In this document: positions 87 through 19,633 of the stretch, piece after piece
Numbering within the stretch: the stretch's first letter is position 1
How the letters are laid out: each line of letters begins with the position of its first letter
Source: a virus
Taxonomy: Duplodnaviria > Heunggongvirae > Uroviricota > Caudoviricetes
IMG/VR virus record: IMGVR_UViG_2693429728_000015
Span: 1-21,849 of that record
Strand: one strand, 5' to 3'
DNA length: 21,849 bases
Made by a program: the position numbers and the translations under genes
Notes under the pieces: model-generated
Seen by the model: the letters and a program-made list of their open reading frames with translations, nothing else
The model's database searches: none
What the model was told of the DNA's origin: nothing

Positions 87-1926
87 CGCAGGGGTCGGCC
101 CATTTGAGCTTCAGATAGGAACGTTTGAATTCCTTTCACAAAATACATCACATACTGAACGTGAACATTCCCACTTTGATCTTAAGGCCAAAAAGTATGC
201 AGGACTAATGATTTTTAGGGATAGCTTGAGAGTATTACCTTATGGTCGAGTAGATAATGATTTCTTCCAGATAGAAGAAAGACGTTCATGGAATGCAGGG
301 CGATATTATTGGTCTAATAGAAGGATTTTTGGTTATATTGGAATTACTCAATCCAGTAATAAAGAGCTGAAAGATAAGTCGGGGAGAGAGGGATTCATAA
401 GAAACCAGGCTGCAAGAGAACTGAAAACTATTATATCTAATTTGTTAACTGAACTTGCTGATAGATTTTTTGGTTCACGTTCTGATGACCGTAAAGAGCT
501 TTTAGAACAAGTTAAGCGTGAAAAAGAGTTAAGAAAATCTGCTCAACAACAAGCTCGAAAATCAACACAAAAAAGTTTTTCAGAAGCTTTGAAGAATCAG
601 ACACCAGTTCTTGATGCTTCCTTGGAGGCTGTTAAAAGGCTGAAAACTAAGCTTGATAAAACTGATGGTTCGTTAGATTTAAACTATCTTAAAATTATAG
701 ACAGTGATCTTACAAACTTAGATGCGTTGCGCAGTGAAATTAAAACGCCTATCAAACCTCCAAAACTTGGAATGTATGAAGAGAAATATAGAGACTACAG
801 AGATAAATTTAATGAGTTCTCTGCGTATATTCTACAAATGAAGTTAGCAATTAATAAACTTGATTCTGAATTAAATAAACTTGAGCCTTCATTGTCAGCG
901 AAAAATCACCTTGAAAAAAATCAAGGTATTATTAATTCTAAACTAACTAAGTTTAATAACACGATAGAGGAGAAGATACATTCTCTTTTAAAAAAATGGG
1001 CCGATGAAATAAAGGTTGATCGAAGTGATTATTATGCTAAAACTATATCAGTTGTTGATTCAATAGATAATGATTCACAAATTGAAAATGTGTTTAATTT
1101 GCTCGATAGTTTATATGTTGAGTCAGTTGATACCCTAACTTTCAAATATCAATCAATAATAAAAGGTCTCGATGGATTATTTGAAGGTATAAACTTAGAT
1201 TCAGCATTCTCATTATCTGAAGAAGAACGCTCATATTTTGAAGAAAAAGCTAAAAGTTTAAACGCGCTTGCACAGTTAGGTATTAGTGTTGAGATAATAT
1301 CTCATGAACTTGAAGAAATGGATTCTATGGTAACCAGAGGACTAAACTCTCTTCCTACTTCTGTAAAAGAACACCCTGGTTTTTCATTGGCGTTAAATGC
1401 TCACAGATCGCTTACTCAACAAATACGTTTCTTATCACCTTTGAAAATATCAGGTTATCAATCCAGGCAGAGAATAACTGGAAAAAATATCATGGATTAT
1501 GTCCTGAAGTTCTTTGGGGAGCGTTTCGAACGGCAACGAATAACTATTGAATTTAGTGAAGAGTTTAAGCAAATCGCAATAACAGATATACCATCAAGGA
1601 TCTATCCTGTTTTTACTAATATTATCAACAATGCAATGTATTGGGTCAGTCTGTCAAATAATAGGCTCATAAAGATTGGTTTTGTGAATTCTTTGGTTAT
1701 CATAGCAAATTCTGGTCCGGCAATTGATACCGATGATATCCCGCGACTATTTGAACTATTTTATAGCAAAAGAGCAAATGGACATGGGGTAGGTCTGTAT
1801 CTATGTCGAGAAAACCTTGCTGTTGCACATCATAAAATATGGTATTCAGAACCTGATGAAGGCGATAACTATTTAATAAAAGATGGCGCTAATTTTGTGA
1901 TCCAGTTCAATGGAGTGGAGTTCTAA
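87..1926 (+). pseudogene. 3' portion of a histidine-kinase-like (GHKL) ATPase gene, with its 5' part removed by the IS3 insertion
   Basis: The reading frame is open from the IS3 boundary (AGVGPFELQIGTFEF...LMIFRDSLRVLPYG), so the annotated ATG at 208 is internal. A long K/E/L-rich helical middle region follows. The C-terminus has an H-box-like ISHELEEM (His codon 1303-1305), an N-box NIINNAMYW, a G1-like SGPAIDTDD, FELFYSKR and a G2-like GHGVGLYLCRENL. Confidence 0.7.
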
Positions 1927-1927
1927 T

Positions 1928-3676
1928 ATGACAGTGGCAAATTATAATTCTCTTGTCCAGAAAACTTTCTGCGAAAATGCAATTCGTTCCGTTGTCATGA
2001 TTGATGACGATTTTCTGACGTATTCTGAATCAATCAGGGCGTTGAATAACGAAGTTGATTTAGACTACAACAAAATTGACTCATCTAAACGAGCCGCTAC
2101 TCTTGAGAGCTTTTTTCAATCTAAAAATATGATTTGTGATGTTGACAATGGTTCTGTTAATTTCGATGTGGATCGGATTAGAAAATCAGATCTTATTATT
2201 GTAGATTATCATCTTGATAATAATGCACCTGATAAAACACTTAAACTATTACAAGATTTGAAAGGCTCCGATCATTTAAATATGATTGTAATATATACTA
2301 GAGAGAATTTAGAAACGGTTTGGATGCAGATATCATCGACTCTCAAAGGTGCTCTGGATATCAACAGCTTGATCATTGACTACGATAATGAAGATGTCCA
2401 AAGTTATTGGGAAGACGTTGTATTACCGAACTTAAATGATAATGGTAATAAAGCTCTCACAAGAGATGAAACAATAGCCTATATTAAAGACAGTAAGCCT
2501 TGTAGAAGAATTAAAAGATTAATACATGATGATGCTGTGTTGGAGGATCAAAAGGATAAAAACTTCATTGCAAAAATGATTGCAGAATATGCTGTGTCTA
2601 GAAATGCAATTATTTCTAGCAACACATCTGGCAATGTCATTCGGGGTGATGAAAGCGGAGTAAAATGGATTCAATGTGGTAATATCTTTGTCTCCCTATT
2701 TCATAAGGTTCAAGATGATCATGAAAACGATGGAGATAGGATTTGGCAAACTCTCAATGATTCTCTCATTGAATGGAAACCATCTTATTATCAGTTAATA
2801 AAATCTGAAATTCAGAATGCAATCGAAGCTGAGGCTTTATCTTTTGTAAATCATTTGGCTAACGATCATTACGGTCAAGCTGCGTGGTTAAATGAGATAT
2901 TAAAATCAGACTCGCCTGATATTAGATGTAGAAATATTGACTTTGTATTTGGTAATTTATCAGAAGAGCTTTATCAAAGACTTAAAAATAATAATACGCT
3001 GGATGAATTTATCAAAAGTGTTTTTGATAGCTATTCAAATGAATACGCTAACAGCGGAGTTGCTGCATTGCTCCAATATTGCTCTTCAAAAATGGATCTG
3101 CCATCAAATAATGATACTTATCACGAAATGTATCATGCTTTAAATATGAATTTGTCTTCAAAGAATTTTGAAGATGGTCATATTTCTACTGGCACTATTT
3201 TCTTTGATACAGAGTCGAACAAATGGTATTTATGTGTATCTGCGGCATGTGATTTGGTTCCTACTCAGGGTAACGACCCTCACCATGTAAGATTAAGTCC
3301 GCACAGGCTCATTAAAGTTCTGGAGCTTTTTAACGCCAGTCAGAGTAAAGCATTGCCATTTGCTGAACATTCGAAATATATATATGTAATGCATAAAAAT
3401 CAAAGAAAATATCTCTCTATTTTCGAAGGGGATAAAACGCTTCCTGTTGTTGATTATATGGTGGTGTTGAATCATGGAACAACAGTTGATGGCGAAGAAA
3501 AAAATATTATTTCTGCCGTGTTTTTAAGTAATATGGATGGCAACGTGCAAAATGTTCCTGTCCGACTCAAACTTAAATCTCAACTGAGAACTGGTTATGC
3601 AGAAAGATATCAGGCTATAGCGTCTCAGTATAGCTCAAGGATTGGTGTGGATTATGTATCAATGATGCTACCATAA
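1928..3676 (+). CDS. Receiver(REC)-like domain protein with a roughly 450-aa uncharacterised C-terminal region (putative effector)
   Basis: GGAG lies 7 nt upstream of the ATG at 1928, 2 nt after the upstream stop. An alternative ATG at 1910 overlaps the upstream gene. The N-terminus shows receiver hallmarks: acidic pocket VVMIDDD, candidate phospho-acceptor LIIVDYHLD (Asp codon 2204-2206) and a VIYT threonine about 31 aa later. I recognise no domain in the remainder (for example WYLCVSAACDLVP). Confidence 0.65.
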   Translation: MTVANYNSLVQKTFCENAIRSVVMIDDDFLTYSESIRALNNEVDLDYNKIDSSKRAATLESFFQSKNMICDVDNGSVNFDVDRIRKSDLIIVDYHLDNNAPDKTLKLLQDLKGSDHLNMIVIYTRENLETVWMQISSTLKGALDINSLIIDYDNEDVQSYWEDVVLPNLNDNGNKALTRDETIAYIKDSKPCRRIKRLIHDDAVLEDQKDKNFIAKMIAEYAVSRNAIISSNTSGNVIRGDESGVKWIQCGNIFVSLFHKVQDDHENDGDRIWQTLNDSLIEWKPSYYQLIKSEIQNAIEAEALSFVNHLANDHYGQAAWLNEILKSDSPDIRCRNIDFVFGNLSEELYQRLKNNNTLDEFIKSVFDSYSNEYANSGVAALLQYCSSKMDLPSNNDTYHEMYHALNMNLSSKNFEDGHISTGTIFFDTESNKWYLCVSAACDLVPTQGNDPHHVRLSPHRLIKVLELFNASQSKALPFAEHSKYIYVMHKNQRKYLSIFEGDKTLPVVDYMVVLNHGTTVDGEEKNIISAVFLSNMDGNVQNVPVRLKLKSQLRTGYAERYQAIASQYSSRIGVDYVSMMLP

Positions 3677-4201: not shown

Positions 4202-5431
4202 TTAGGCTACCAGAGCATTTGATCTTTGAGCTTGAACGTAATCACTCCACCATTGCATCAAACTCTGTCGCTCTATCAGATATTCTGCACGATTGTATGC
4301 TGCGATAATTTCATCTTTTTTCGAGTGGGCAAGCGCTGCCTCAAGAACTTCAGCTCTGAATTTACCAGACTCCTCTGCCGCTGTTCGTGCAATAGAACGC
4401 ATACCGTGAGCTACAAGCTCGCCTCCGAACCCCATTCGGATGATAGCTGCGTTGGCTGTTTGTTCATGCATATGATTAAGAGGCGCTTTTATGCTGGGGA
4501 AAACCCATTCTCTATGCCCACTTATTGATTTCATTAATTCAAGGATGCGCAAAGCTTCTTTACTCAAAGGAACTTTGTGAAGCTTTTTCATTTTCATGAA
4601 ATCAGCAGGAATGTTCCAAATGCTGTTGGTTGTATCAATATCAGACCACCTTGCGCGAACGGCTTCACCCGGACGAACCCATGTCAACAATTGCCATTCA
4701 ATTAGCATACGTGTTTCCAACCGGATTGACGCATTCGTCAAAGATTCCATAAACCTTGGCAATTCGCTTGGGGGAAGGGCAGGCATATTTTGCTTTTTTG
4801 GTTTACTGAATCTTTGACCAAGGTTGTCAGCCGGGTTGAACTCAATAAGTTCTTCAGTAGCTGCCCACCGGAAGATTTCATTCAGACGTGAAATGATACG
4901 GCGTAGAGTTTCCAATACGCCTCGTTGCTCAATAGGATCAAGGTGTTGTTTTAAGAGCTTAGGTCGGATCTCATTGATAGGGACATTACCCAGACCGGGA
5001 AAGACATTTCTCTCTAAGCTGCGCCAGATGTCTGCTGCATGGTCTTGTGAGATACCTGATGTCTTTACCTTCTCATCTAACCATTTCCGCGCTACGGCTT
5101 GGAGAGTGTGCTCAGTAGCACTCTTTAATGCCTTCGCCTTATCGTTGTTATGGATTTGGGGATCAACACCATTTGCCAGAAAGGAGAGATATTCATCACG
5201 TAAGGCTCTGGCTCTTGCAAGGGTAAGGTGAGGATATGTCCCAAGGCTCATTTTGGTTCTTTTCTTGCTCACTGGTACTGCATACCTGAAATACCAATTT
5301 TTCTTGCCTCCTTTCGCCAAAGGAGCGATTCGTAGAATCAGACCATCACCGTCAAACAAGTTGATTTCTTTATCGGCTGGCTTGGTGCTTTTGATTTCAG
5401 TGTCAGTGAGCTTCTTAGCGATTTTTGCCAT
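4202..5431 (-). CDS. P4-type (tRNA/tmRNA-associated) tyrosine integrase
   Basis: The N-terminus MAKIAKKLTDTEIKSTKPADKEINLFDGDGLILRI is typical of P4-like integrases. The C-terminus has ...VRPGEA..., HGMRSIARTA and AYNRAEYL (catalytic Arg, His-x-x-Arg and Tyr). Overall it resembles CP4-57 IntA as I remember it. I prefer the ATG at 5429-5431 (GAGGG upstream) to the ORF-track start at 5473, which has no Shine-Dalgarno sequence. Confidence 0.9.
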   Translation of the reverse strand: MAKIAKKLTDTEIKSTKPADKEINLFDGDGLILRIAPLAKGGKKNWYFRYAVPVSKKRTKMSLGTYPHLTLARARALRDEYLSFLANGVDPQIHNNDKAKALKSATEHTLQAVARKWLDEKVKTSGISQDHAADIWRSLERNVFPGLGNVPINEIRPKLLKQHLDPIEQRGVLETLRRIISRLNEIFRWAATEELIEFNPADNLGQRFSKPKKQNMPALPPSELPRFMESLTNASIRLETRMLIEWQLLTWVRPGEAVRARWSDIDTTNSIWNIPADFMKMKKLHKVPLSKEALRILELMKSISGHREWVFPSIKAPLNHMHEQTANAAIIRMGFGGELVAHGMRSIARTAAEESGKFRAEVLEAALAHSKKDEIIAAYNRAEYLIERQSLMQWWSDYVQAQRSNALVA

Positions 5432-5528
5432 TTTGGGACCCTCGGTTTTTGGACCCTTCTTAATGGGTCCCATTCAGGGTGCCATAACTCGTAGTTCTCA
5501 GCAATTCTCACTGGACGACAATAGACGT

Positions 5529-5561
5529 AAAAAAGCCCGCAGAGCTTGTGCTGTGTGGGCT
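5529..5561 (-). terminator. Rho-independent terminator immediately downstream of the ssrA 3' fragment
   Basis: The minus strand reads AGCCCACA-loop-TGCGGGCT (one mismatch) followed by TTTTTT. Confidence 0.5.
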
Positions 5562-5596
5562 TAGTAGACTTCATTGAACTTCAAACAACTAAAAAG

Positions 5597-5641
5597 TGGT
5601 GGAGCTGGCGGGAGTTGAACCCGCGTCCGAAATTCCTACAT
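5597..5641 (-). repeat. ssrA: 45-bp copy of the 3' end of ssrA (tmRNA T-arm and acceptor, ending CCA): attachment-site junction between two integrated elements
   Basis: The minus strand reads ATGTAGGAATTTCGGACGCGGGTTCAACTCCCGCCAGCTCCACCA, identical to the E. coli tmRNA 3' end as I recall it. Similarity stops abruptly at 5642, where AT-rich sequence begins, so this is a fragment and not the gene. Confidence 0.85.
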
Positions 5642-5764
5642 ACTAATAATATATCTTTAAAATCAAAATATTCTATTATTTATCAATGTATTATGTTTAT
5701 GTGGTGTTAAGGGGTTTATATGGGTTTTAGTTCTCTGCCGCCAAAATGCAGCCAAAAAAATTGA

Positions 5765-5794
5765 ATGGTAAAACGCCAGTTCGTTGAACTGGCG
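5765..5794 (-). terminator. Rho-independent terminator ending the int-dut/dcd-like-thyX-like transcription unit
   Basis: A perfect 9-bp stem, CGCCAGTTC / GAACTGGCG (5774-5794), has a 3-nt loop. On the minus strand TTTTACC follows, 11 nt after the stop at 5805. Confidence 0.7.
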
Positions 5795-5804
5795 AGATCT
5801 TGTC

Positions 5805-6572
5805 TTATTGTTTTATTATCTTAACGTGCGCCGTTCCTCCATTGACTTTTTCGAAATCTTGGAACAAGGCAGGGGCATCTTGAGTTACAATATCGTAAAG
5901 TTTTTCTGAAACTGTTCTCATTTCATAGTCACCCTGTATTGCTCCTCTCATTTCGAAGAAGTGTCGAATTGCGCGAGCATTTGCTGTGACGATTATTTTT
6001 GTCTCGGTTGCATTAGGCAATATAGAGCGAGAAGCGCTTCTTAGGGCCCGCATTTTTTCTTTTTTGTTCTCATACGATTGGTTTTCACGGATTTTTTTCA
6101 AGGATTGCTTATAAAAATCCAGACTACTTTCAATATGTTGGCACCATGACTTAAACAATTCTGGGTCATTTTTTACTTCTATAGGGGCTACGAATTCAGC
6201 ATCGGATTCATCATGATACTGTTGGGATAACTGGCTATATGAAAAACCAGCTCTATGCCGAACTAGCTGGTGTGTAAATGCACGAGATACCCCAGTAATT
6301 AAAAAGGTCCAGTTCAAATGTTCTAAGACACTTTCATGCCCTTGAATAATTAAATTGTTGATATATTGACTTGTAGTCCGTGGAGACTGCTTATCCTCTC
6401 CAAAAGACATATAACATAGCCTGCCAGCGGCCTCTACCAGAAGCTCAGCTTCGGTCGCCTGCCCTTTGCGAACCCATTGCAATGATGATGTGTTTAAAAA
6501 ATCATCAAAAACATTACTTTCAAATGAAGGGTGTGATATGCATTTTACTGATAAATCAGAGATTTTTATCAT
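5805..6572 (-). CDS. Divergent ThyX-like protein (flavin-dependent thymidylate synthase fold)
   Basis: ThyX signature blocks are present: AAGRLCYMS, QGHESVLEH, THQLVRHRAGFSYSQLSQQY (compare the RHR...S....SxRY motif) and ARAIRHFFEMRG. GGGAG lies 5 nt upstream of the ATG, and the start is 2 nt after the upstream stop. The gene is AT-rich relative to the phage backbone. Confidence 0.75.
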   Translation of the reverse strand: MIKISDLSVKCISHPSFESNVFDDFLNTSSLQWVRKGQATEAELLVEAAGRLCYMSFGEDKQSPRTTSQYINNLIIQGHESVLEHLNWTFLITGVSRAFTHQLVRHRAGFSYSQLSQQYHDESDAEFVAPIEVKNDPELFKSWCQHIESSLDFYKQSLKKIRENQSYENKKEKMRALRSASRSILPNATETKIIVTANARAIRHFFEMRGAIQGDYEMRTVSEKLYDIVTQDAPALFQDFEKVNGGTAHVKIIKQ

Positions 6573-6574
6573 TT

Positions 6575-7360
6575 TTACTCCCGTATAGCTTTTGGGGTGC
6601 TTACTTTAGCATCAACCTTTGGTTCGTTTGATTTAGCATTTTTTAGTAATTCAACGGTGCTTTTTAGGCTATTTATTTCATTTTGTTGAACTTTTATTGT
6701 TAATTCAAGATCTTTTGTACTACTGACATTACTGGATACTATTTGAAATAAGAAAGGAATTGCTAGGGTTATCAACGTTAGCATTAAGGCTGCTATCGCA
6801 ATTATAAAGCCAGTTTTTTTCGCAATGATTTTATTGATTTCTTTCGGAAGTCGTTTATCAAGTCCTGCAAAATCCTTTCCCATTCTAGAAAGTTGATCAT
6901 CATCCAATTTATTTACGATTTTTCCTTGGTAACCTTTAGTCGGTATTATTGTTTTAAATAATAACATTCGGGCTACTGCAGAATTTTGTGTCAATGAGAA
7001 TGGTTCTTTTGACATATTTACAAGATATATTGAAATTATGCCATTATATCCAGGGTCAATATGCCCTGGATTCGTCATGATAATTCCATTTTTTGATAGT
7101 GTGTTTCTTGGGAATATTACACCAGCTAAATTTTTTGCAAGTTGGAATTTTTCATTTAACTCTAATATTACAGTTTCCCCTGGCATCAGGATATGGTTGT
7201 TACGTGTTTTTTTATTGTCTTGACAGTCTGGTATATGTATTGTTTTTACAGAGAGATCAATGCTTGCAGATTGAACTTTAAATGTTCCATTTAATACCGT
7301 TAATGGATCAAAAATGTTGCCTCGCTGAATTTCATCATTGATTTCTATTTCAGACAGCAT
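6575..7360 (-). CDS. dUTPase/dCTP-deaminase (Dut/Dcd) superfamily protein with a C-terminal transmembrane helix and a coiled-coil tail
   Basis: Blocks align with E. coli Dut and Dcd: SASIDLSV, MPGETVIL, FPRNTLSKNGI and GHIDPGYNGIISIYLVNMSKEPFSLTQNSAVARMLLF. A hydrophobic segment, GFIIAIAALMLTLITLAIPFLFQIV (about nt 6737-6811), is followed by a heptad-like tail. AGGA lies 8 nt upstream of the ATG, 26 nt downstream of the int stop. Confidence 0.7.
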   Translation of the reverse strand: MLSEIEINDEIQRGNIFDPLTVLNGTFKVQSASIDLSVKTIHIPDCQDNKKTRNNHILMPGETVILELNEKFQLAKNLAGVIFPRNTLSKNGIIMTNPGHIDPGYNGIISIYLVNMSKEPFSLTQNSAVARMLLFKTIIPTKGYQGKIVNKLDDDQLSRMGKDFAGLDKRLPKEINKIIAKKTGFIIAIAALMLTLITLAIPFLFQIVSSNVSSTKDLELTIKVQQNEINSLKSTVELLKNAKSNEPKVDAKVSTPKAIRE

Positions 7361-7386
7361 ATCAAAATCCTATATTTGTAAAGTTA

Positions 7387-8400
7387 TTATAAATTAGCCA
7401 GAGGGTTTTTTATTACTGCATCTTCAAGATGCTCTGGGGAAAAATGTGCATAAATCATAGTCATTTTTATATCAGAGTGGCCTAAAATATCTCGTAAAAC
7501 CAAAATATTACCACCATTCATCATAAAATGGCTGGCGAATGTATGGCGCAGAACGTGGGTGCATTGGCCCTCTGGTAACTCAATGTCAGCTCGCTTTACT
7601 GCTCGTTCAAAGGCTTTTCTGCAAGGAGTGAATAACTTCCCTCTGTTCTTAGGGAGTTCGTCATACAGATCCTGAGATATCGGCACGGTACGGTTTTTCT
7701 TGCCCTTAGTCTTGGTATAGGTGATCCGGTATTTCGATAACTGATGGCCCTGCAGATTTTCGGCTTCACTCCAGCGCGCGCCGGTGGCCAGGCATATTTT
7801 TGCAATTAAAAGTAGACTGGGGCTTTGAGAATCAGCACAGGCATCCAGCAGACGTTTAATTTCTTCCGGGGTCAGGAACGCCAGTTCACCCTCAGCAATT
7901 TTAAATGTTGGCAGCCCGGCAAGCGGATTGGGGGCTGACCAGTGGCCCAACTTTTTCAGTGTGCCAAAAACAGATGATAGGTTGCGCTGTTCAAGGTTTA
8001 CAGTGCGGGGCTTAACGGGCGACATAAGCGTGCCCTCTTCATTTCGCACTTCACCTTTTAGCCGCGCTTCTCGGTATTTAGTAAAATCACCGGCTGTCAG
8101 CTCTGAGGCGATGGGATCGCCTAGACCATTACAGATAATTCTAAGTTTCGCCATGAGGCGCTTGGGGTCTGCGAGTGTTTGACCATACAGGGAATACCAC
8201 TGCTCAATTAATTCTGATAGGTGTCGCCGATCTTCCTTTTCCCCCAGCCATGGCTTTTTGTTCACTTCTTCCATTGTGAAGCTTTCAAAAGCAATGGCTT
8301 CGCCTTTCGTAGCAAATTGCTTACGCACGCGCTTGCCATTGCGTCCATGGGGATAGCACTCGCACAACCATTTACCGTTTGGCTGTTTTCTGACAGTCAT
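7387..8400 (-). CDS. int: P2/186-type prophage tyrosine integrase
   Basis: It is 337 aa, the same length as P2 Int, and collinear with it as I recall it (GRNGKR.RK.F..K.EA.AFE; LATGARWSEAE; HVLRHTFASHFMMNGG; MIYAHFSPEHL). Confidence 0.92.
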   Translation of the reverse strand: MTVRKQPNGKWLCECYPHGRNGKRVRKQFATKGEAIAFESFTMEEVNKKPWLGEKEDRRHLSELIEQWYSLYGQTLADPKRLMAKLRIICNGLGDPIASELTAGDFTKYREARLKGEVRNEEGTLMSPVKPRTVNLEQRNLSSVFGTLKKLGHWSAPNPLAGLPTFKIAEGELAFLTPEEIKRLLDACADSQSPSLLLIAKICLATGARWSEAENLQGHQLSKYRITYTKTKGKKNRTVPISQDLYDELPKNRGKLFTPCRKAFERAVKRADIELPEGQCTHVLRHTFASHFMMNGGNILVLRDILGHSDIKMTMIYAHFSPEHLEDAVIKNPLANL

Positions 8401-11829: not shown

Positions 11830-12683
11830 GTACCATCCTGAAATGGGCGGGTAATAAAACTGCCATTATGTCCGAACTGAAAAAACATCTTCCTGCTGGC
11901 CCGCGACTGGTTGAACCTTTCGCGGGTTCCTGTGCTGTGATGATGGAGACGGATTACCCCAGCTATCTGGTTGCGGATATTAATCCTGATTTAATCAACC
12001 TCTATAAAAAGGTTGCTGCTGATTGCGAGGCGTTTATATCTCGTGCCAGAGCTTTATTTGAGGAAGCAAACAGGGAGTTGGCTTATTACAACATAAGGCA
12101 GGAGTTTAATTACTCCACTGAAATTACTGATTTCATGAAAGCGGTATATTTCCTGTATCTCAATCGTCATGGTTACCGTGGGTTATGTCGTTATAACAAG
12201 AGCGGGCATTTCAACATTCCATACGGTAATTATAAAAATCCGTATTTCCCTGAAAAAGAAATTCGCGCATTTGCAGAGAAAGCCCAGCGAGCAACGTTTA
12301 TCTGCGCCAGCTTTGATGAAACGCTGGCGATGCTGCAGGTGGGGGATGTGGTGTATTGCGATCCGCCTTATGACGGTACGTTTTCCGGCTATCACACTGA
12401 TGGTTTCACTGAAGATGACCAGTATCACCTGGCATCCGTTCTTGAACATCGGTCATCAGAAGGACATCCGGTCATTGTTTCTAACAGTGACACATCCCTG
12501 ATCCGTTCGCTGTATCGAAATTTTACTCACCACTACATCAAGGCAAAACGCAGCATCGGTGTAGCAGCTGGTGAGAGTAAATCTGCAACAGAAATCATCG
12601 CTGTTTCCGGGCCGCGCTGCTGGGTGGGATTTGATCCTTCGCGTGGCGTGGATAGTTCTGCCGTGTACGGAGTGCGTGCATGA
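11826..12683 (+). CDS. dam: Dam-type DNA adenine (GATC) methyltransferase
   Basis: [11 protein letters not shown]...[10 protein letters not shown]...[10 protein letters not shown]...YCDPPY, which includes the DPPY catalytic motif. At about 285 aa it is similar in size to E. coli Dam. ATGA overlap with the upstream gene. The ORF-track start at 11754 is an upstream extension. Confidence 0.9.
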
Positions 12684-15094
12684 GCCATGCTGATATGAAC
12701 AACTGCAGCGGCTTTAACGAGGTCGCCGCAGCATTCTCATGGAACAGCCCGAAAAAGGCCATTAACCCTTATCTGGACCCGGCGGAAGTTGCGCCGGTTT
12801 CTGCGCTTTCAAACCTGATCACTCTGTACGCTACTGATAACGAGCAGGAACAACTGCGCCGCGAGGCACTGAGTGATCAGGTTTGGGAGCGTTATTTCTT
12901 TAATGAATCCCGTGATCCTGTCCAGCGCGAAATGGAGCAGGATAAGCTCATTAGCCGGGCAAAGTTGGCGCATGAGCAGCAGCGTTTTAACCCGGACATG
13001 GTCATTCTGGCAGACGTTAACGCCCAGCCTTCCCATATCAGCAGGCCGCTGATGCAACGTATTGAATACTTCAGCAGCCTTGGCAGGCCAAAGGCTTATT
13101 CCCGCTATTTGCGTGAGACGATTAAGCCATGTCTGGAACGGCTGGAGCATGTACGCGACAGTCAGCTATCCACTTCTTTTCGCTTTATGGCAAGCCATGA
13201 AGGGCTGGACGGCCTGCTGATTCTGCCTGAAATGAGTCAGGATCAGGTGAAACGCCTGTCCACCCTTGTTGCTGCGCATATGAGCATGTGCCTTGATGCA
13301 GCTTGTGGCGATTTGTATGCCACCGATGACGTTAAGCCAGAAGAAATCCGCAAGACATGGGAAAAGGTGGCAGCAGAAACCCTGCGACTGGATGTCATAC
13401 CGCCTGCGTTTGAGCAACTCCGCCGGAAAAGAAACCGCCGCAAACCTGTGCCCTATGAACTCATTCCGGGTTCGCTGGCGCGTATGCTGTGCGCCGACTG
13501 GTGGTATCGGAAATTATGGAAGATGCGTTGCGAATGGCGGGAAGAGCAGTTGCGTGCTGTCAGCCTGGTCAGCAAAAAAGCATCTCCCTATGTCAGCTAT
13601 GAAGCCGTGATGCATAAACGTGAGCAGCGCCGTAAGTCGCTGGAGTTTTTCCGTTCTCATGAACTGGTGAACGAAGACGGCGACACGCTGAACATGGAGG
13701 ATGTGGTAAACGCCAGCAGCAGCAACCCGGCGCATCGCCGCAATGAGATGATGGCCTGTGTTAAAGGCCTGGAACTTATCGCGGAAATGCGTGGTGACTG
13801 CGCCGTTTTCTACACCATCACCTGTCCGTCACGTTTCCATTCCACGCTAAATAACGGCAGGCCAAACCCGACCTGGACCAACGCGACAGTAAGACAAAGC
13901 AGCGATTATCTGGTCGGCATGTTTGCTGCATTTCGTAAGGCTATGCACAAAGCCGGGTTGCGCTGGTATGGCGTGCGGGTGGCTGAGCCACATCATGACG
14001 GTACAGTTCACTGGCACCTGTTGTGTTTTATGCGCAAAAAAGACCGCCGCGCCATCACTGCATTACTGCGTAAGTTTGCCATCCGTGAAGACCGCGAGGA
14101 GCTGGGCAATAACACGGGGCCGCGCTTTAAGTCTGAGTTGATTAACCCGCGCAAAGGAACGCCGACAAGCTACATCGCGAAATATATCAGTAAGAACATT
14201 GACGGGCGTGGTCTGGCTGGCGAGATCAGCAAGGAAACGGGTAAATCCCTGCGTGATAACGCTGAATACGTGAATGCCTGGGCGTCTCTGCATCGTGTTC
14301 AGCAATTCCGCTTCTTTGGTATTCCGGGGCGTCAGGCTTATCGTGAACTGCGATTGCTGGCTGGTCAGGCGGCAAGGCAGCAGGGTGACAAAAAAGCAGG
14401 TGCGCCGGTACTGGATAACCCACGCCTTGATGCCATCCTGGCTGCTGCTGATGCTGGCTGTTTTGCGACCTACATCATGAAGCAGGGCGGCGTGCTGGTT
14501 CCCCGCAAATATCACCTTATCAGAACAGCTTATGAAATTAACGAAGAGCCGACCGCCTATGGCGATCACGGTATTCGTATTTATGGCATCTGGTCACCCA
14601 TTGCAGAGGGCAAGATCTGCACTCATGCAGTGAAGTGGAAAATGGTTCGTAAGGCCGTTGACGTTCAGGAGGCGGCAGCCGAACAGGGCGCTTGCGCCCC
14701 TTGGACTCGTGGCAATAACTGTCCCCTTGCTGAAAATTTGAACCAACAAGGGAAAGACAAATCAGCTGATGGGGATACCAGAACGGACATTACCCACATG
14801 GATGACAAGGAGTTGCACGATTACCTGCACAGTATGAACAAAAAAGAGCGCCGGGAACTGGCTGCAAGGTTACGCCTGGTGAAACCGAAACGGCGTAGAG
14901 ACTACAAACAGCGAATTACAGACCATCAACGACAGCAGCTCGTCTATGAACTGAAGTCCAGAGGATTTGATGGCAGCGAGAAAGAGGTCGATTTACTCCT
15001 TCGCGGCGGCAGTATTCCGTCAGGAGCAGGCCTGCGTGTCTTCTATCGGAACCAGCGTTTGCAGGAAGATGATAAGTGGCGGAACCTGTATTAA
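12680..15094 (+). CDS. A: P2 gpA-family replication initiation endonuclease (rolling-circle nickase)
   Basis: An HUH-type motif, [11 protein letters not shown], and the paired-tyrosine motif YIAKYISKN. The size and the position downstream of dam, at the end of the early operon, both fit. ATGA overlap with dam. Confidence 0.9.
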
Positions 15095-15247: not shown

Positions 15248-15436
15248 ATGCAGGACTATTTTTTGGAGTCTTTGAAGCTCCAGCGCATTGATTTTTTTCT
15301 TAAGCTTGTAGCGGCTAGTGAGTGTAGTGATGAAGAGAAGGGGCTGGCCCTGCAGTGGGTTTCTGAATTGACTGATGAACTCATGGCAAAAATCAGAAGC
15401 CACGAATACAACCGCTCAATGGATGTCATCAGCTGA
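15248..15436 (+). CDS. SOS-regulated small protein, possibly a Tum-type antirepressor module
   Basis: AGGAGG lies 6 nt upstream of the ATG at 15248. The ORF-track start at 15146 would run across the promoter and LexA box. The functional assignment rests only on position, by analogy with the LexA-controlled tum of phage 186. Confidence 0.5.
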   Translation: MQDYFLESLKLQRIDFFLKLVAASECSDEEKGLALQWVSELTDELMAKIRSHEYNRSMDVIS

Positions 15437-15446
15437 GGTGACTTTT

Positions 15447-15680
15447 ATGCGCATTGAAATAATGATCGATAAAGAGCAGAAGATTAGCCAGTCTACCCTG
15501 GACGCTCTGGAGTCCGAGCTTTACCGCAACCTGCAACCCATCTATCCCAAGACCGCTATCCGCATCCGTAAAGGGTCGGCAAACGGCGTTGAGCTGAGTG
15601 GCTTAAAGCTTGATGAAGACAAAAAGCGGGTGATGGAAATTATGCAACAGGTTTGGGAAGACGACAGCTGGCTGCACTAA
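15447..15680 (+). CDS. DinI-family protein
   Basis: MRIEIMIDKEQKISQSTLDALESELYRNL...IMQQVWEDDSWL aligns with E. coli DinI (MRIEVTIAKTSPLPAGAIDALAGEL...ILQETWESADDWF). GAGGTG lies 7 nt upstream of the ATG. Confidence 0.85.
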   Translation: MRIEIMIDKEQKISQSTLDALESELYRNLQPIYPKTAIRIRKGSANGVELSGLKLDEDKKRVMEIMQQVWEDDSWLH

Positions 15681-15798
15681 GGAACGTTCCTGATGTAAGA
15701 ACTTGAATCTGACGTCAGCAAGGTTGAACAACGAGAGTAGCGAGGCGTTAGCCATGGGTAAAAAAGACAGTAATCACCAGATTATTTATCGGGGCTAG

Positions 15799-16014
15799 GT
15801 GCTGGAACGTTTAACCCTTGGCGACTGGGTCTTCTTTCAACGCCCAAAGGAGTGTGGCGGAGGTTTTTGGTTGGGCCGCATCTATGAAGACTGCTTCTGG
15901 CTTGAGCTGGAATTCCCCGTTTCGCTATATGACGGCCTGGGGTTTTTGATGGAAGTCACTAGGGTAGAGCAGAGAAGTGATGAGGTTGACGCGAATTATC
16001 CCCTGTTTGATTAA
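15799..16014 (+). CDS. Hypothetical 71-aa ORF with a GTG start
   Basis: Only an open frame with a weak GGGG upstream. The product is Trp/Phe-rich and I recognise no motif. Confidence 0.25.
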   Translation: MLERLTLGDWVFFQRPKECGGGFWLGRIYEDCFWLELEFPVSLYDGLGFLMEVTRVEQRSDEVDANYPLFD

Positions 16015-16033
16015 AAATGTATTAGCTTATAAT
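16007..16033 (+). promoter_or_regulatory. Sigma-70-like promoter for the 203-aa membrane-protein gene
   Basis: TTGATT (16007-16012) or TTTGAT (16006-16011), a 15-16 nt spacer, then a perfect TATAAT (16028-16033), 30 nt upstream of the ATG. Confidence 0.45.
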
Positions 16034-16062
16034 GGAATACTATTTTTGCAGGTGGGGGCGCA

Positions 16063-16674
16063 ATGGATTTAGTCTTTAAAGTTCTGGCTTCGTTGGGTGG
16101 GGTGTCTTTTGTTGCATCTGGCATATTTGTTTGGATCGGGAAAGTTTATTTAGAAAGATATAAGTCGCGGCTAAACAAAGATATTGCTGAATTTCAATCA
16201 CAACTGAGTGCAACTAATGAAAGAATAAAGGCTAAGTTAGACAATTCTGTTTATGTAACGAAAGCGTATTTTGATAAGGAGTTATCAGCATATAGTCTCA
16301 TTTGGAATTCGATGTTTGAAACCAGAGAAAGCGTGCTTAAGCTGAGGCCTGCGCTGGATCATGTTGACCCCAACGAACCATTTGAAGAGAGAAAATTTAG
16401 AAGGTTGAAAGTTTTTTCTGATGCATTTAACACTTTTGTTACAAGTGTTGAATCTAACAAACCGTTCATCTCACCAGAGGTTTATATAATCTTGGACCGT
16501 TTCCGGAAGGAATGCCTTTCAGAGTCAATATCGTTTAAGCATAGCGATCCAGAATTTGACGGGCAAAATTATTGGAAAGAGGCGGAGTTGAACCATACAA
16601 CCATCATCAAGCTTTTTGATGAGACGTGTGATGCAATTCGAGACAGGATGCACACATTAACTGTGGTTACGTAG
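16063..16674 (+). CDS. Single-pass membrane protein of unknown function (prophage cargo, or moron)
   Basis: The N-terminus has a hydrophobic helix, LVFKVLASLGGVSFVASGIFVWIG. The rest is helical and charged. The gene has its own promoter and terminator and is AT-rich relative to the backbone. Confidence 0.7.
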   Translation: MDLVFKVLASLGGVSFVASGIFVWIGKVYLERYKSRLNKDIAEFQSQLSATNERIKAKLDNSVYVTKAYFDKELSAYSLIWNSMFETRESVLKLRPALDHVDPNEPFEERKFRRLKVFSDAFNTFVTSVESNKPFISPEVYIILDRFRKECLSESISFKHSDPEFDGQNYWKEAELNHTTIIKLFDETCDAIRDRMHTLTVVT

Positions 16675-16766
16675 GTTTCCAAAAAGTCTCGATGCCCGCT
16701 TTGGAGATTGTGCATGTCTATGCCGCATGAATCCGCATGATCGTTTGAGGATCGTTTTAGCTGAGG

Positions 16767-16790
16767 CCCGCCAGGAGTGGCGGGATTTTG
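16767..16790 (+). terminator. Rho-independent terminator after the 203-aa gene
   Basis: CCCGCC (16767-16772), loop AGGAGT, GGCGGG (16779-16784), then ATTTTG. Confidence 0.55.
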
Positions 16791-16834
16791 CTTATGTCAT
16801 GCAGGCGCATGAAAACCGCTACATAAAGCGGGCA

Positions 16835-16853
16835 GGCGTGGCGGGGATACGAG
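16835..16853. other. Candidate cos site (19-nt cohesive-end sequence of a P2/186-family phage)
   Basis: GGCGTGGCGGGGATACGAG shares its first 13 nt with the 186 cohesive end as I recall it (GGCGTGGCGGGGAAAGCAT). The following GCGCGCT matches the sequence just inside the P2/P4 left end (GGCGAGGCGGGGAAAGCACTGCGCGCTGA). Confidence 0.65.
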
Positions 16854-16870
16854 CGCGCGCTCATTACTTT

Positions 16871-16890
16871 TATAATTCTAGGGTTATAAT
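16871..16890 (+). promoter_or_regulatory. Possible promoter(s) for the KAP NTPase gene
   Basis: Two perfect TATAAT hexamers (16871-16876 and 16885-16890) lie 30-45 nt upstream of the ATG. I could not identify a convincing -35 element. Confidence 0.3.
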
Positions 16891-16918
16891 ACGGGGCTGT
16901 CTTTCTAGGAGAAAACAC

Positions 16919-18571
16919 ATGTCCTTAGAGTTTATCAAAGAACAGTTGTCAGATTTTATCTCATCTACAGAACCAGAAGTAATGGCTATACAGGGTGAAT
17001 GGGGAATTGGTAAAACCTATACTTGGAATACGTTCCTAAAAGATAATAAAGATAAGGTTGCATTTAATAGATATAGTTATGTCTCTCTTTTTGGTATAAA
17101 TTCACTAGATTCTTTAAAGTATTCTATTTTTGAGAATGCAATTACAAAGGAATATATTGGAAATAAACCTGATTTGGAGACAGCAACAACAAACGCAAGT
17201 GGACTTTTTGAATCATTTTCTCGAAAAGCAGCAGGTTTGTTAAAAGAAGTTCCTGTTGTAAAAAACTTCTCTACGACACTTGAAGCAATGTCATTTCTGA
17301 CCGTTTCTAAAATGATTGTAGTAATAGATGACTTAGAAAGGCGTGGCAAAAATTTAGATGTTAAAGATGTTTTAGGGCTAGTATCTCTATTAAAAGAGCA
17401 GAAGGATTGTAAGGTGGTTCTATTGCTTAACAATGGCACAGCTAGTATGGAGGATTATTCTACTTATAAAGAAAAGGTCATTGATAGAGATATCACTTAC
17501 AATCCAACACCAGAAGAATGCGCAGATATAGCCTATAAAGGTGATTCTCATGTTTATAACTTGTTAAGTAAATATTCCATTTCTTTAGGTATCAAGAATA
17601 TTCGAATCTTAAAAAAGATAGAACGTTTTTTCGTGTCCTTAATACCAAATATTATAGGTGATGTTGAGACAATTTCAAATGAAGTTGCGCATTCATTAAC
17701 TCTGTATTGTTGGAGCCATTACGGATTTTCTCCAGAGGGAGATGTGCCATCACTAGAATATATTAGGGGAGTGAGGAATATATATACTTATAATGACAAG
17801 GAAGAAGGCCATGAGAAAATCTGGCTTAATACCTTGCTTAAATATGGATATAGAAAAACGAATGATCTTGATGAGGTTCTTATTGATATGGTTAGATATG
17901 GCTATCTTGATAAGAGCAGTTTCCAAAGACAAATAAGCCTAAGGAATGAGGAGATTACGCGTGATAATAAACGAGGTTCCTTATCTGAGGCATGGCAGTT
18001 CTTTCATAATTCATTTGATGACAATCAAAATCAGGTTGTTGACAAGCTATATCAAGCGGTGGTTGATGGGATGAAGTATGTGACTCCAAGTGATTTAGAT
18101 AATGTTGTCGGACTATATAGGGATTTCGGAGAGAATGCTAAGGCGAGTGAATTGATTGAACAGTTTATTAATTATGGTAACGATGCTCTAAAGGAATATG
18201 TTCAATCTATTTATGTGAATGTTCATCCCGTAAGAGATACTGAGTTGTTGTCAAAAATTCAAGCCTATTCTAAGATTATAAATATTGATGGTTCAATATA
18301 TGATGTTCTTAAGAAATTATCAGGTCAGAATGGTTGGTCTGATAGACATGAGGAAATATTGGATGCTGCTTCAGTAGATGACTACTATCAATTATTTAAA
18401 AATGTCATTCTTGATGGTGGTGATTCAATAATAGCTACGGCGCTTAAATTCGGAAATTTTAGTAATGGTTCTGATAGAATGAATCGTATAGGGAAAAAGG
18501 CAAGGGATGCCTTGATAAGAATTGGAGATGAATCGGCGATTAATAAAATGCGTGTAAGGCGATTTTTGTGA
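16919..18571 (+). CDS. KAP-family-like P-loop NTPase, 550 aa (prophage cargo; candidate anti-phage protein)
   Basis: AGGAG lies 8 nt upstream of the ATG at 16919. Walker A is IQGEWGIGKTY (nt 16994-17017). Walker B is MIVVIDDLERRGKNLDVKDVLGLVSLLKE (nt 17312 onward), the DDL(D/E)R signature of KAP NTPases. This is the most AT-rich gene in the window. The ORF-track start at 16727 runs through the terminator and cos and is rejected. Confidence 0.75.
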   Translation: MSLEFIKEQLSDFISSTEPEVMAIQGEWGIGKTYTWNTFLKDNKDKVAFNRYSYVSLFGINSLDSLKYSIFENAITKEYIGNKPDLETATTNASGLFESFSRKAAGLLKEVPVVKNFSTTLEAMSFLTVSKMIVVIDDLERRGKNLDVKDVLGLVSLLKEQKDCKVVLLLNNGTASMEDYSTYKEKVIDRDITYNPTPEECADIAYKGDSHVYNLLSKYSISLGIKNIRILKKIERFFVSLIPNIIGDVETISNEVAHSLTLYCWSHYGFSPEGDVPSLEYIRGVRNIYTYNDKEEGHEKIWLNTLLKYGYRKTNDLDEVLIDMVRYGYLDKSSFQRQISLRNEEITRDNKRGSLSEAWQFFHNSFDDNQNQVVDKLYQAVVDGMKYVTPSDLDNVVGLYRDFGENAKASELIEQFINYGNDALKEYVQSIYVNVHPVRDTELLSKIQAYSKIINIDGSIYDVLKKLSGQNGWSDRHEEILDAASVDDYYQLFKNVILDGGDSIIATALKFGNFSNGSDRMNRIGKKARDALIRIGDESAINKMRVRRFL

Positions 18572-18578
18572 TTTTTAT

Positions 18579-18600
18579 AGGGGTGATTAACCCCTTTTTA
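18579..18600 (+). terminator. Rho-independent terminator after the KAP NTPase gene
   Basis: AGGGGT (18579-18584), loop GATTA, ACCCCT (18590-18595), then TTTTA. It lies 8 nt after the stop and abuts the portal-gene stop at 18602. Confidence 0.65.
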
Positions 18601-18601
18601 T

Positions 18602-19633
18602 CTAATTTAATGAGTAATCATTAAATGCTATGATTTTTTCATTTAGCCAAGTATTAATTTCTATAAGCCTTTTTTGTAACGGAATTAATTCATTTCGGAC
18701 AAAGACTTTACTAGCCTTTTCCACATCCCCAAACCCCCCAACATTATTCGGCATTATCCCCATCATTTGCGGCGGCACGCGGTGTGCCGCCATCATGTCG
18801 TCCCGGCTCACGTTCTTGATATTCAAAAACTCATCCTTCGCTGCGACCTCTGACAACGGGATAATCTGAAGCCCGTCCTTTTTGCCGTTAGGCGAGTACA
18901 TAAACAGGTTGCGGAAGTTGCCCGGACCTTTGGCGCTTTTCATCGCGTTGCGGAGGTTGTTCACATCCTCTTGGTTTTGCGCAGCATCGGTCATATACAT
19001 GATGAAGCCTGCATGGCTGCCGTTAATGTAATACTTACGGCGGAACAACGTGGCGGACTCGTTGAGCAGAGCTGACGGAATGGCAGAAAGATAACCGGGC
19101 AGGCCGTAGATCTCCTGGTTGATATCCGGTTCCATCAGATGAAAGATGCTGCCTTTCGTGAACTGATACGGCTGCGTAGTCATGCCGTATTGCACAAACC
19201 AGTAGGTATCCAGGTCTAACCCGCGTCGGGTGTATTTTGCCAGCGCAGGTTCAAGGGCGATAACTTCACCGAAGCGGTTCGTGCGTTTCTCCAGGTAAGC
19301 GTTACCAAATACCAGATAGTCCTGCACAAAACGTGAAAAAGCCTGCTGGCTGAGAAGCGGGTGAGGGATGTAGGTACTGGTCAGAATGTTGCATTTCACC
19401 GCAATTGGTGAACTGTGATGCACGGCAGCGCGGAAGGTTCGCGCCAGTCCGTCAAAACTCACTGGCGGCTCATACCAGCGATCTGTCTGTACGCATTCTA
19501 CATAGTCCAGCAGTTCGCGGCGGTCCAGAACAGGAACGGGATCGCCAAAGCTGAATGCTTCGGCTGAAGTCTGGCTTTTGTGCTGAATCTGGTTCGTCGA
19601 CACAGCGCGGTTCTTCTTACTCTTTCCCATCAA
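18602..19633 (-). CDS. Q: P2 gpQ-family portal protein
   Basis: It is 343 aa, the size of P2 Q. It is adjacent to and overlaps (ATGA) the terminase gene on the same strand, the characteristic Q-P arrangement divergent from O. Confidence 0.9.
   Translation of the reverse strand: MMGKSKKNRAVSTNQIQHKSQTSAEAFSFGDPVPVLDRRELLDYVECVQTDRWYEPPVSFDGLARTFRAAVHHSSPIAVKCNILTSTYIPHPLLSQQAFSRFVQDYLVFGNAYLEKRTNRFGEVIALEPALAKYTRRGLDLDTYWFVQYGMTTQPYQFTKGSIFHLMEPDINQEIYGLPGYLSAIPSALLNESATLFRRKYYINGSHAGFIMYMTDAAQNQEDVNNLRNAMKSAKGPGNFRNLFMYSPNGKKDGLQIIPLSEVAAKDEFLNIKNVSRDDMMAAHRVPPQMMGIMPNNVGGFGDVEKASKVFVRNELIPLQKRLIEINTWLNEKIIAFNDYSLN

Follow-up and report, generated by a model that had tools for sequence, protein, structure and literature searches.

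What is the role of a gene lodged between the cohesive-end site (cos) and the portal gene Q of a P2-like prophage? This question is raised by the IMG/VR virus record IMGVR_UViG_2693429728_000015 (Caudoviricetes), whose positions 1 to 21,849 make up the whole stretch of DNA analysed here and are referred to below as the window. At 16919-18571, on the plus strand, the window carries a gene for a P-loop NTPase of the KAP type. An earlier reading of the letters alone (the original prediction) had seen in it a possible anti-phage gene of a kind not yet named as a defence system. We find that the gene is horizontally acquired accessory ('moron') cargo of the cos-to-portal slot rather than a core phage gene. 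Judged from its sequence and structural model, the product is a soluble KAP-clade NTPase with an AAA+/STAND-like core, a helical lid and a family-specific helical domain. The gene probably serves as a prophage-borne, single-gene anti-phage (or anti-mobile-element) defence that protects the lysogen.

Cargo slots on the two sides of cos

The NTPase gene belongs to a P2-family prophage of the 186/Fels-2 type in the Escherichia coli chromosome. The order of the prophage genes is integrase, CI, Apl/Rha-like, CII, Fil, Dam, gpA (replication gene A, 12680-15094), a small open reading frame (ORF), DinI, cos, Q and P. The DinI-family gene lies within an ORF at 15375-15680, its start being not precisely placed. 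Both Q (18602-19633) and P are on the minus strand, and Q, which flanks the cassette and is not part of it, is convergent with the NTPase gene. The 19-nt cohesive end, GGCGTGGCGGGGATACGAG (16835-16853), recurs without a change in Fels-2, in two other E. coli prophages and in relatives from Klebsiella and Salmonella. Between the end of cos and that of Q (18602, the last base of its stop codon) we measured 1,749 bp, in agreement with the earlier estimate of about 1.75 kb. In P2, cosL (GGCGAGGCGGGGAAAGCAC) occupies positions 1-19 of the phage genome and the stop of Q falls at 187; the 167 nt between them exceed the few tens of base pairs given in the original prediction.

The borders of the cassette were derived from blastn comparisons with eight related loci. 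A conserved cos block of about 150 bp (16710-16861) has 87-93% identity in all sister phages, its flanks being unrelated, and splits two independently variable cargo slots. Slot A, on the DinI side (15753-16709), holds here an ORF of 203 residues. Slot B, on the Q side (16862-18601, plus strand), reaches from cos to Q and holds the NTPase gene together with its own signals (1.74 kb, 34% guanine plus cytosine, GC). Homology with the relatives that carry AIPR, SEFIR or Ymh genes stops at 16860/16861 and restarts between 18604 and 18674, at the 3' end of Q or slightly within it. Slot B of these sister phages turned out to hold unrelated cargo: an AIPR gene both in Klebsiella phage ST11-VIM1phi8.4 and in Fels-2 (STM2723.1; PF10592, E 8.8e-43), a SEFIR/TIR gene in ST15-OXA48phi14.1 and a Ymh-domain gene in vB_EcoM-813R9. 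In other words, AIPR, SEFIR/TIR, Ymh and KAP genes alternate between the same cos block and Q. P2 itself carries old and tin in slot A, between gene A and cosR; its cos-to-Q slot is empty, whereas in the 186/Fels-2-like lineage this slot is routinely filled. The original prediction, by invoking the old/tin locus, had pointed to the right, documented gpA-gpQ hotspot but to the wrong side of cos. This cos-proximal hotspot was defined by Rousset et al. 2022, who distinguished 1,650 arrangements of genes among 18,150 loci and validated several systems taken from it as defensive (PMC9122126). Being located between gpA and Q, next to cos, in a P2-like prophage, the NTPase gene is one of its occupants.

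Gene structure and signals

The gene codes for 550 residues (62.8 kDa, isoelectric point (pI) 5.3) and corresponds to RefSeq WP_053891075, named 'P-loop NTPase fold protein'. Its ATG at 16919 is the RefSeq start for identical and near-identical genes and stands 7 nt after a Shine-Dalgarno sequence, AGGAG (16907-16911, plus strand). The longest ORF (16727-18571, 614 residues) was also considered and rejected: its upstream extension of 64 codons has no Shine-Dalgarno sequence and crosses the conserved cos block, and the same DNA is non-coding in all sister phages. The GC content of the NTPase gene is 33.8%, below the 50-56% of gpA, Q and P. A pair of TATAAT hexamers (16871-16876 and 16885-16890, plus strand) could be -10 elements, with no good -35, and downstream of the gene there is an intrinsic-terminator-like hairpin, AGGGGTGATTAACCCCT (18579-18595, plus strand), with a T run to 18600. 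Thus, the AT-rich gene with its own TATAAT elements, Shine-Dalgarno sequence and terminator was recovered as described earlier. Another terminator-like hairpin is present inside the cos block (16767-16784, plus strand) and could insulate the Q-side cargo from upstream transcription.

A KAP-like NTPase without membrane helices

The assignment of the protein to the KAP NTPases was borne out by both profile and motifs. Pfam KAP_NTPase (PF07693) matches residues 8-193 with 30.2 bits, well above the gathering score of 20, and 37 of 40 homologues match the same profile; a weak NB-ARC match was found in 13 of the 40. KAP NTPases are defined by a Walker A motif of the form GxxGxGK[ST] and a Walker B motif of the form hhhhDD[LF][DE]R. 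Both are intact in the window protein, as GEWGIGKT (residues 26-33; 16994-17017, plus strand) and IVVIDDLER (residues 133-141, of which 133-137 form a strand in the model; 17315-17341, plus strand). Among the 40 homologues, which go down to 41% identity, G26, W28, G29, G31, K32, T33, I136, D137, D138, E140 and R141 are invariant, as are N171 and R229, and L139 is conserved in at least 90% of the sequences. In total, the 40-sequence alignment has 83 invariant columns, and these include all the catalytic motifs.

In classical KAP NTPases, the NTPase domain is interrupted by two or four inserted transmembrane helices. In the window protein we detected no transmembrane segment, the best 19-residue Kyte-Doolittle window (1.35) being that of the Walker B strand. 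Roughly where classical KAPs hold their membrane helices, between strand 2 and Walker B, there is a helical, non-hydrophobic insert (residues 57-132; 17087-17314, plus strand) with a grand average of hydropathy of 0.05 and a maximal 19-residue Kyte-Doolittle value of 1.35. In the AlphaFold2 (AF2) model it consists of amphipathic helices and a disordered stretch at residues 94-119. Since the insert is not hydrophobic, the protein is a KAP-like member devoid of transmembrane helices, just as had been anticipated.

The mean predicted local distance difference test score of the AF2 model is 82.7, and residues 94-119 are the sole stretch that falls below 50. The model has a five-stranded P-loop core, a four-helix lid (198-268) and an all-helical part (279-550). 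The family-specific, all-helical C-terminal domain (residues 271-550; 17729-18568, plus strand) comprises about 280 residues, close to the roughly 300 proposed originally, and is a putative sensor or output domain. The protein is acidic throughout and has no basic domain. Its best structural matches are AAA+ ATPases of the initiator clade and of transposition systems, which act on DNA. PHROG 4740, a family of unknown function, matches the full length (E 5.5e-125), and a search of NCBIfam gave no informative match. Profiles of the STAND type stayed below their Pfam thresholds (NB-ARC, 14.5 against 23.5; AAA_16, 17.1 against 32.6; ATPase_2, 18.6 against 33.2). Moreover, the AF2 model lacks a beta-hairpin winged helix after the lid, so that the protein departs from the NBD-HD1-WHD arrangement of STAND NTPases.

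Distribution and conservation

The NTPase gene is present in 123 of 5,426 complete E. coli genomes (about 2%), in every case on the chromosome. Of the 124 E. coli records, 115 have an identity of 99% or more along their entire length, and the other nine have 80-90%. A query containing the cos block matches about 1,268 E. coli genomes; taking this figure as an approximate count of carriers of such prophages, roughly a tenth of them have the NTPase gene. It is lacking in each of the 60 deposited P2-like phages with matching flanks, and no close homologue was found among 50,697 deposited phage genomes, in which the best match has 27% identity. With such a distribution, the gene is not a conserved core gene of this phage lineage. 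In E. coli W137 (NZ_CP163067.1 3085042-3088238) it is interrupted by an IS2 insertion, a natural knockout.

Outside E. coli, the search yielded over 1,000 homologues of 42-45% identity, from Vibrio, Shewanella, Pseudomonas, Aeromonas, Cronobacter and Salmonella, and their conservation over the full length excludes chance. A search with the C-terminal domain alone returned 1,256 clusters at 50% identity. Nearly all the proteins in these clusters have 550-600 residues, with the domain at positions 270-555; the architecture is therefore fixed, and among the best 150 of the 1,256 cluster representatives we saw no shuffling of the C-terminal domain. In distant homologues the NTPase core retains 52-62% identity, compared with 25-41% for the C-terminal domain.

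Genomic contexts of the homologues vary. A 77% allele from E. coli and a 42% homologue from Salmonella occupy the same cos-to-Q slot. In Cronobacter sakazakii, a homologue with 44% identity (5001-6665 of its locus) is part of a lambdoid prophage (Cro, KilR, Gam, RusA, Q), where it adjoins a pentapeptide-repeat gene and an AbiJ-like (AbiJ_NTD4) gene. P2-like phages are thus not the only carriers of the family. Another homologue, 43% identical and 554 residues long, is intact in a P2-like prophage remnant of about 4 kb (metagenome contig, 6001-7665), where it sits between a truncated DinI (54 residues) and a truncated portal protein (177 residues). It is adjoined by a GIY-YIG gene and carotenoid genes, and the crt genes point to a Pantoea-like chromosome. 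Finding an intact homologue in so decayed a remnant suggests domestication after prophage decay. The homologues from Pseudomonas, Vibrio and Shewanella are solitary and have no conserved neighbour.

Relation to known and candidate defence systems

The window protein has been catalogued before. Rousset et al. 2022 list WP_053891075, along with its about 80% identical allele WP_001726290, as 'KAP_NTPase' in the P2 gpA-gpQ hotspot (Table S5A), and a single-gene 'KAP_NTPase' is their hotspot system #8, with 306 occurrences (Table S5B; PMC9122126). The window protein, its allele and system #8 are all absent from the systems that were tested in that study (PMC9122126). The novelty originally ascribed to the gene was overstated, given this listing, the existence of the candidate PDC-S49 and the validation of single-protein KAP-NTPase defences in Enterococcus (PMC13552941). 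We regard it as an already catalogued candidate from a sister family of a known kind rather than as a discovery.

A search with the PADLOC hidden Markov models (HMMs), as the original prediction had suggested, gave at E values up to 1 the candidate PDC-S49 (E 3.2e-27, 93.6 bits, residues 6-428, HMM positions 9-440 of 624) and, marginally, PDC-S20, and no other model. All 40 members of the window family match the PDC-S49 HMM. Like the window protein, system #8/PDC-S49 is a single-gene, TM-less (lacking transmembrane helices) KAP-like NTPase carried as cargo in the same E. coli P2-like hotspot. The two have a common N-terminal signature (G-x-W-G-x-G-K-T, SL[FY]G[IV]NS, DD[LI]ER), but their 24% identity covers only the first ~170 residues and their C-terminal domains differ. 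With 417 bits on the PDC-S49 HMM, system #8 is the true PDC-S49, and the window protein is treated here as a sister family. NOD-1 (P4 system #11, 'AAA_22/NB-ARC', from E. coli ATCC 8739) is 27% identical to window residues 21-234 (E 5e-10). It shares the NTPase, the lid and the Walker motifs with the window protein and differs from it in the C-terminal region. NOD-1 is likewise cos-adjacent cargo, of a satellite that shares the cos of P2, though in the P4 and not the P2 hotspot. With slight broadening, the signature (GxWGxGKT, SL[FYL]G[IVL]NS, DD[LI]ER) is common to system #8, NOD-1 and the window family, and all three of these TM-less KAP-like families reside in cos-adjacent hotspots.

Compared by description, the best functional analogue of the window protein would be the EF_KAP group. 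EF_KAP and three metagenomic KAP proteins combine, as the window protein does, a KAP P-loop NTPase with about 300-320 following residues in which there is no known domain. Defence of the EF_KAP type, reported from Enterococcus (PLoS Biol 2026), needs both Walker B and the C-terminal region (PMC13552941). There are also clear differences: the model of EF_KAP contains two transmembrane helices, of which one is in the NTPase domain, whereas the window protein has none, and the EF_KAP set is Gram-positive or metagenomic and located beside small serine recombinases, whereas the window protein is encoded in a P2 prophage. Tmn, PifA and QatA, too, are P-loop NTPases of the KAP clade and are tied to phage exclusion. 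Tmn has two transmembrane helices in its NTPase domain and QatA acts within a four-gene system, while the window protein is soluble and solitary. PADLOC holds models for Tmn, PifA and QatA, and none of them matched the window protein at E up to 1. Finally, STAND/NLR-like NTPases (Avs/AVAST, TIR-NLR of the P4 hotspot) resemble the window protein in joining an NTPase switch to a C-terminal helical array. Given the sub-threshold profiles and the missing winged helix, only the fold class is common to them. The window protein also has no N-terminal effector domain because its NTPase starts at residue 1, and Avs proteins are far larger than its 550 residues.

Proposed function and alternative explanations

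Several lines of evidence speak for a role in defence. The gene is cargo of an experimentally supported hotspot, and its very slot holds AIPR, SEFIR/TIR and Ymh genes in sister phages. Selection on the side of the host is supported by the homologue that stayed intact in a decayed prophage, by the AbiJ-like neighbour in Cronobacter and by the diverged alleles in the same slot. A precedent, by analogy, is offered by the PDC-S49 match in all 40 family members and by the Enterococcus defences, in which a KAP NTPase is likewise joined to an uncharacterised region (PMC13552941). In our model, the prophage would express the NTPase, and the lysogen would thereby be protected against other phages. The more divergent C-terminal helical array might recognise a phage-derived protein or another cue of infection, and recognition might then license the NTPase module to bind or hydrolyse NTP (nucleoside triphosphate) and, probably, to oligomerise. 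As nuclease, TIR, protease and pore domains are all absent, the output would come from the NTPase/helical assembly itself, which could act on an essential phage protein, by sequestration or remodelling, or else use up NTPs. This specific nucleotide-switch mechanism is put forward with far less confidence than the defence function as such.

A number of observations count against a defence role. In the C-terminal half we found neither an effector domain nor a catalytic-looking fold, and the output step is for this reason speculative. A scan for consensus sigma-70 promoters detected no full -35/-10 pair on the plus strand upstream of the gene, and expression in the lysogen is therefore a presumption. 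The match to PDC-S49, in which membership was judged against the score of a true member and not by PADLOC cut-offs, is weak (94 bits, compared with 417 for system #8, itself truncated), and PDC entries are only computational 'phage defence candidates'. Our search of the literature, of the full text on PDC-S49 and of main texts for the RefSeq accessions found no published experimental test of the window family, and the related NOD-1 failed to protect against any of eight phages (Rousset et al. 2022, PMC9122126). The gpA-gpQ hotspot also houses cargo that is not defensive, namely plasmid-partition genes and a cytolethal distending toxin (PMC9122126), and the surroundings of the homologues from Vibrio, Shewanella and Pseudomonas are not readily recognised as defence islands.

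Some of these observations would fit an accessory role other than defence, be it prophage maintenance, interference with satellites of the P4 type, which rely on the same cos, lysogenic conversion or help in replication or packaging by a DNA-associated ATPase of the ORC/TnsC kind. Partition systems alone are found in about a quarter of P2-like phages (PMC9122126), the structural neighbours of the NTPase act on DNA, the gene lies directly beside cos, and NOD-1 did not defend. We nevertheless consider such a role rather unlikely. The gene is missing from about 90% of the approximately 1,268 genomes with the cos block and from 60 of 60 flank-sharing phages, and is therefore not needed for the phage cycle, while the acidity of the whole protein disfavours DNA binding. 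It was also kept intact after prophage decay, its family extends to lambdoid prophages and to non-phage islets, and the slot is otherwise filled by genes of the Abi and TIR types. Could it then be a functionless or decaying passenger of a recombination-prone slot? The IS2 insertion in W137 and the lack of a known phenotype agree with this, but full-length conservation with a fixed architecture over 1,256 clusters, the invariant columns with their catalytic motifs, near-identity of most E. coli records and an ORF still intact in AT-rich surroundings, which readily give rise to stop codons, make it very improbable.

The remaining alternative is that the NTPase is one half of a two-gene system, the other half being the 203-residue protein encoded upstream in slot A (16063-16674, plus strand; phrog_26391). 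This protein has an N-terminal transmembrane helix (Kyte-Doolittle 2.0) followed by a coiled coil, and might replace the membrane helices that the NTPase lacks; in the window the two genes are direct neighbours with the same orientation, and strain 504237 has the same pair. The co-occurrence counts largely refute this proposal: the NTPase gene is found in 123 and the 203-residue gene in 52 of the 5,426 E. coli genomes, yet they are next to each other in just one, and UTME-8 carries an identical NTPase gene with slot A empty. These two observations mark the NTPase gene as a single-gene unit. Moreover, the cos block with its terminator-like hairpin separates the two genes, they sit at opposite ends of the packaged linear genome, and other homologues of the NTPase have different neighbours. 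We would give a two-gene system almost no credence, even less than the passenger explanation. A single-gene defence, on the other hand, remains the probable function.

If the gene is indeed active, the validated class of single-protein KAP-NTPase defences would extend to a soluble, prophage-borne form from Gram-negative bacteria with no visible effector, and the question would be how a phage can be stopped by nothing more than an NTPase and a helical array. It is tempting to go further and to picture complete one-protein immunity without killing, the C-terminal domain first sensing a phage component and, once NTP has driven assembly, neutralising it directly by sequestration or remodelling. 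The window family, PDC-S49 and NOD-1 would then make up a hitherto unrecognised superfamily of NTPase defences that lack an effector and are adapted to the cos-adjacent slots of P2 phages and P4 satellites; this we regard as unlikely. The 1.74-kb cassette, with its known borders, is a well-defined object for testing. Nature provides alleles of 100%, ~80%, 77% and 42% identity in the same slot as well as 'empty' and 'other cargo' controls. Being carried by about 2% of complete E. coli genomes, the gene is also relevant to the prediction of phage host range.

Other features of the window

Many RefSeq records name the 203-residue gene of slot A 'valyl-tRNA synthetase', almost certainly in error. 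Immediately outside the P2-like integrase (7387-8400), two genes of low GC content (31-33%) form a pair on the minus strand: a ThyX/Thy1 gene (5805-6572; PF02511, E 2.6e-48) and a gene of the dCTP-deaminase/dUTPase fold (6575-7360; PF22769, E 5.9e-15). Neither matches PADLOC. The pair is possibly a module that manipulates the nucleotide pool. Since unrelated hypothetical genes take its position in other strains, the region resembles a further slot for variable cargo, adjoining int. The window also holds a second integrase (4202-5473, minus strand). Further upstream, a gene for a histidine kinase, whose domains are HEF_HK and HATPase_c (208-1926, plus strand), is followed by one for a Response_reg_2 protein (1910-3676, plus strand). 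These two genes are AT-rich (29-36% GC) and have no PADLOC match, and the pair (208-3676) looks like a chromosomal islet.

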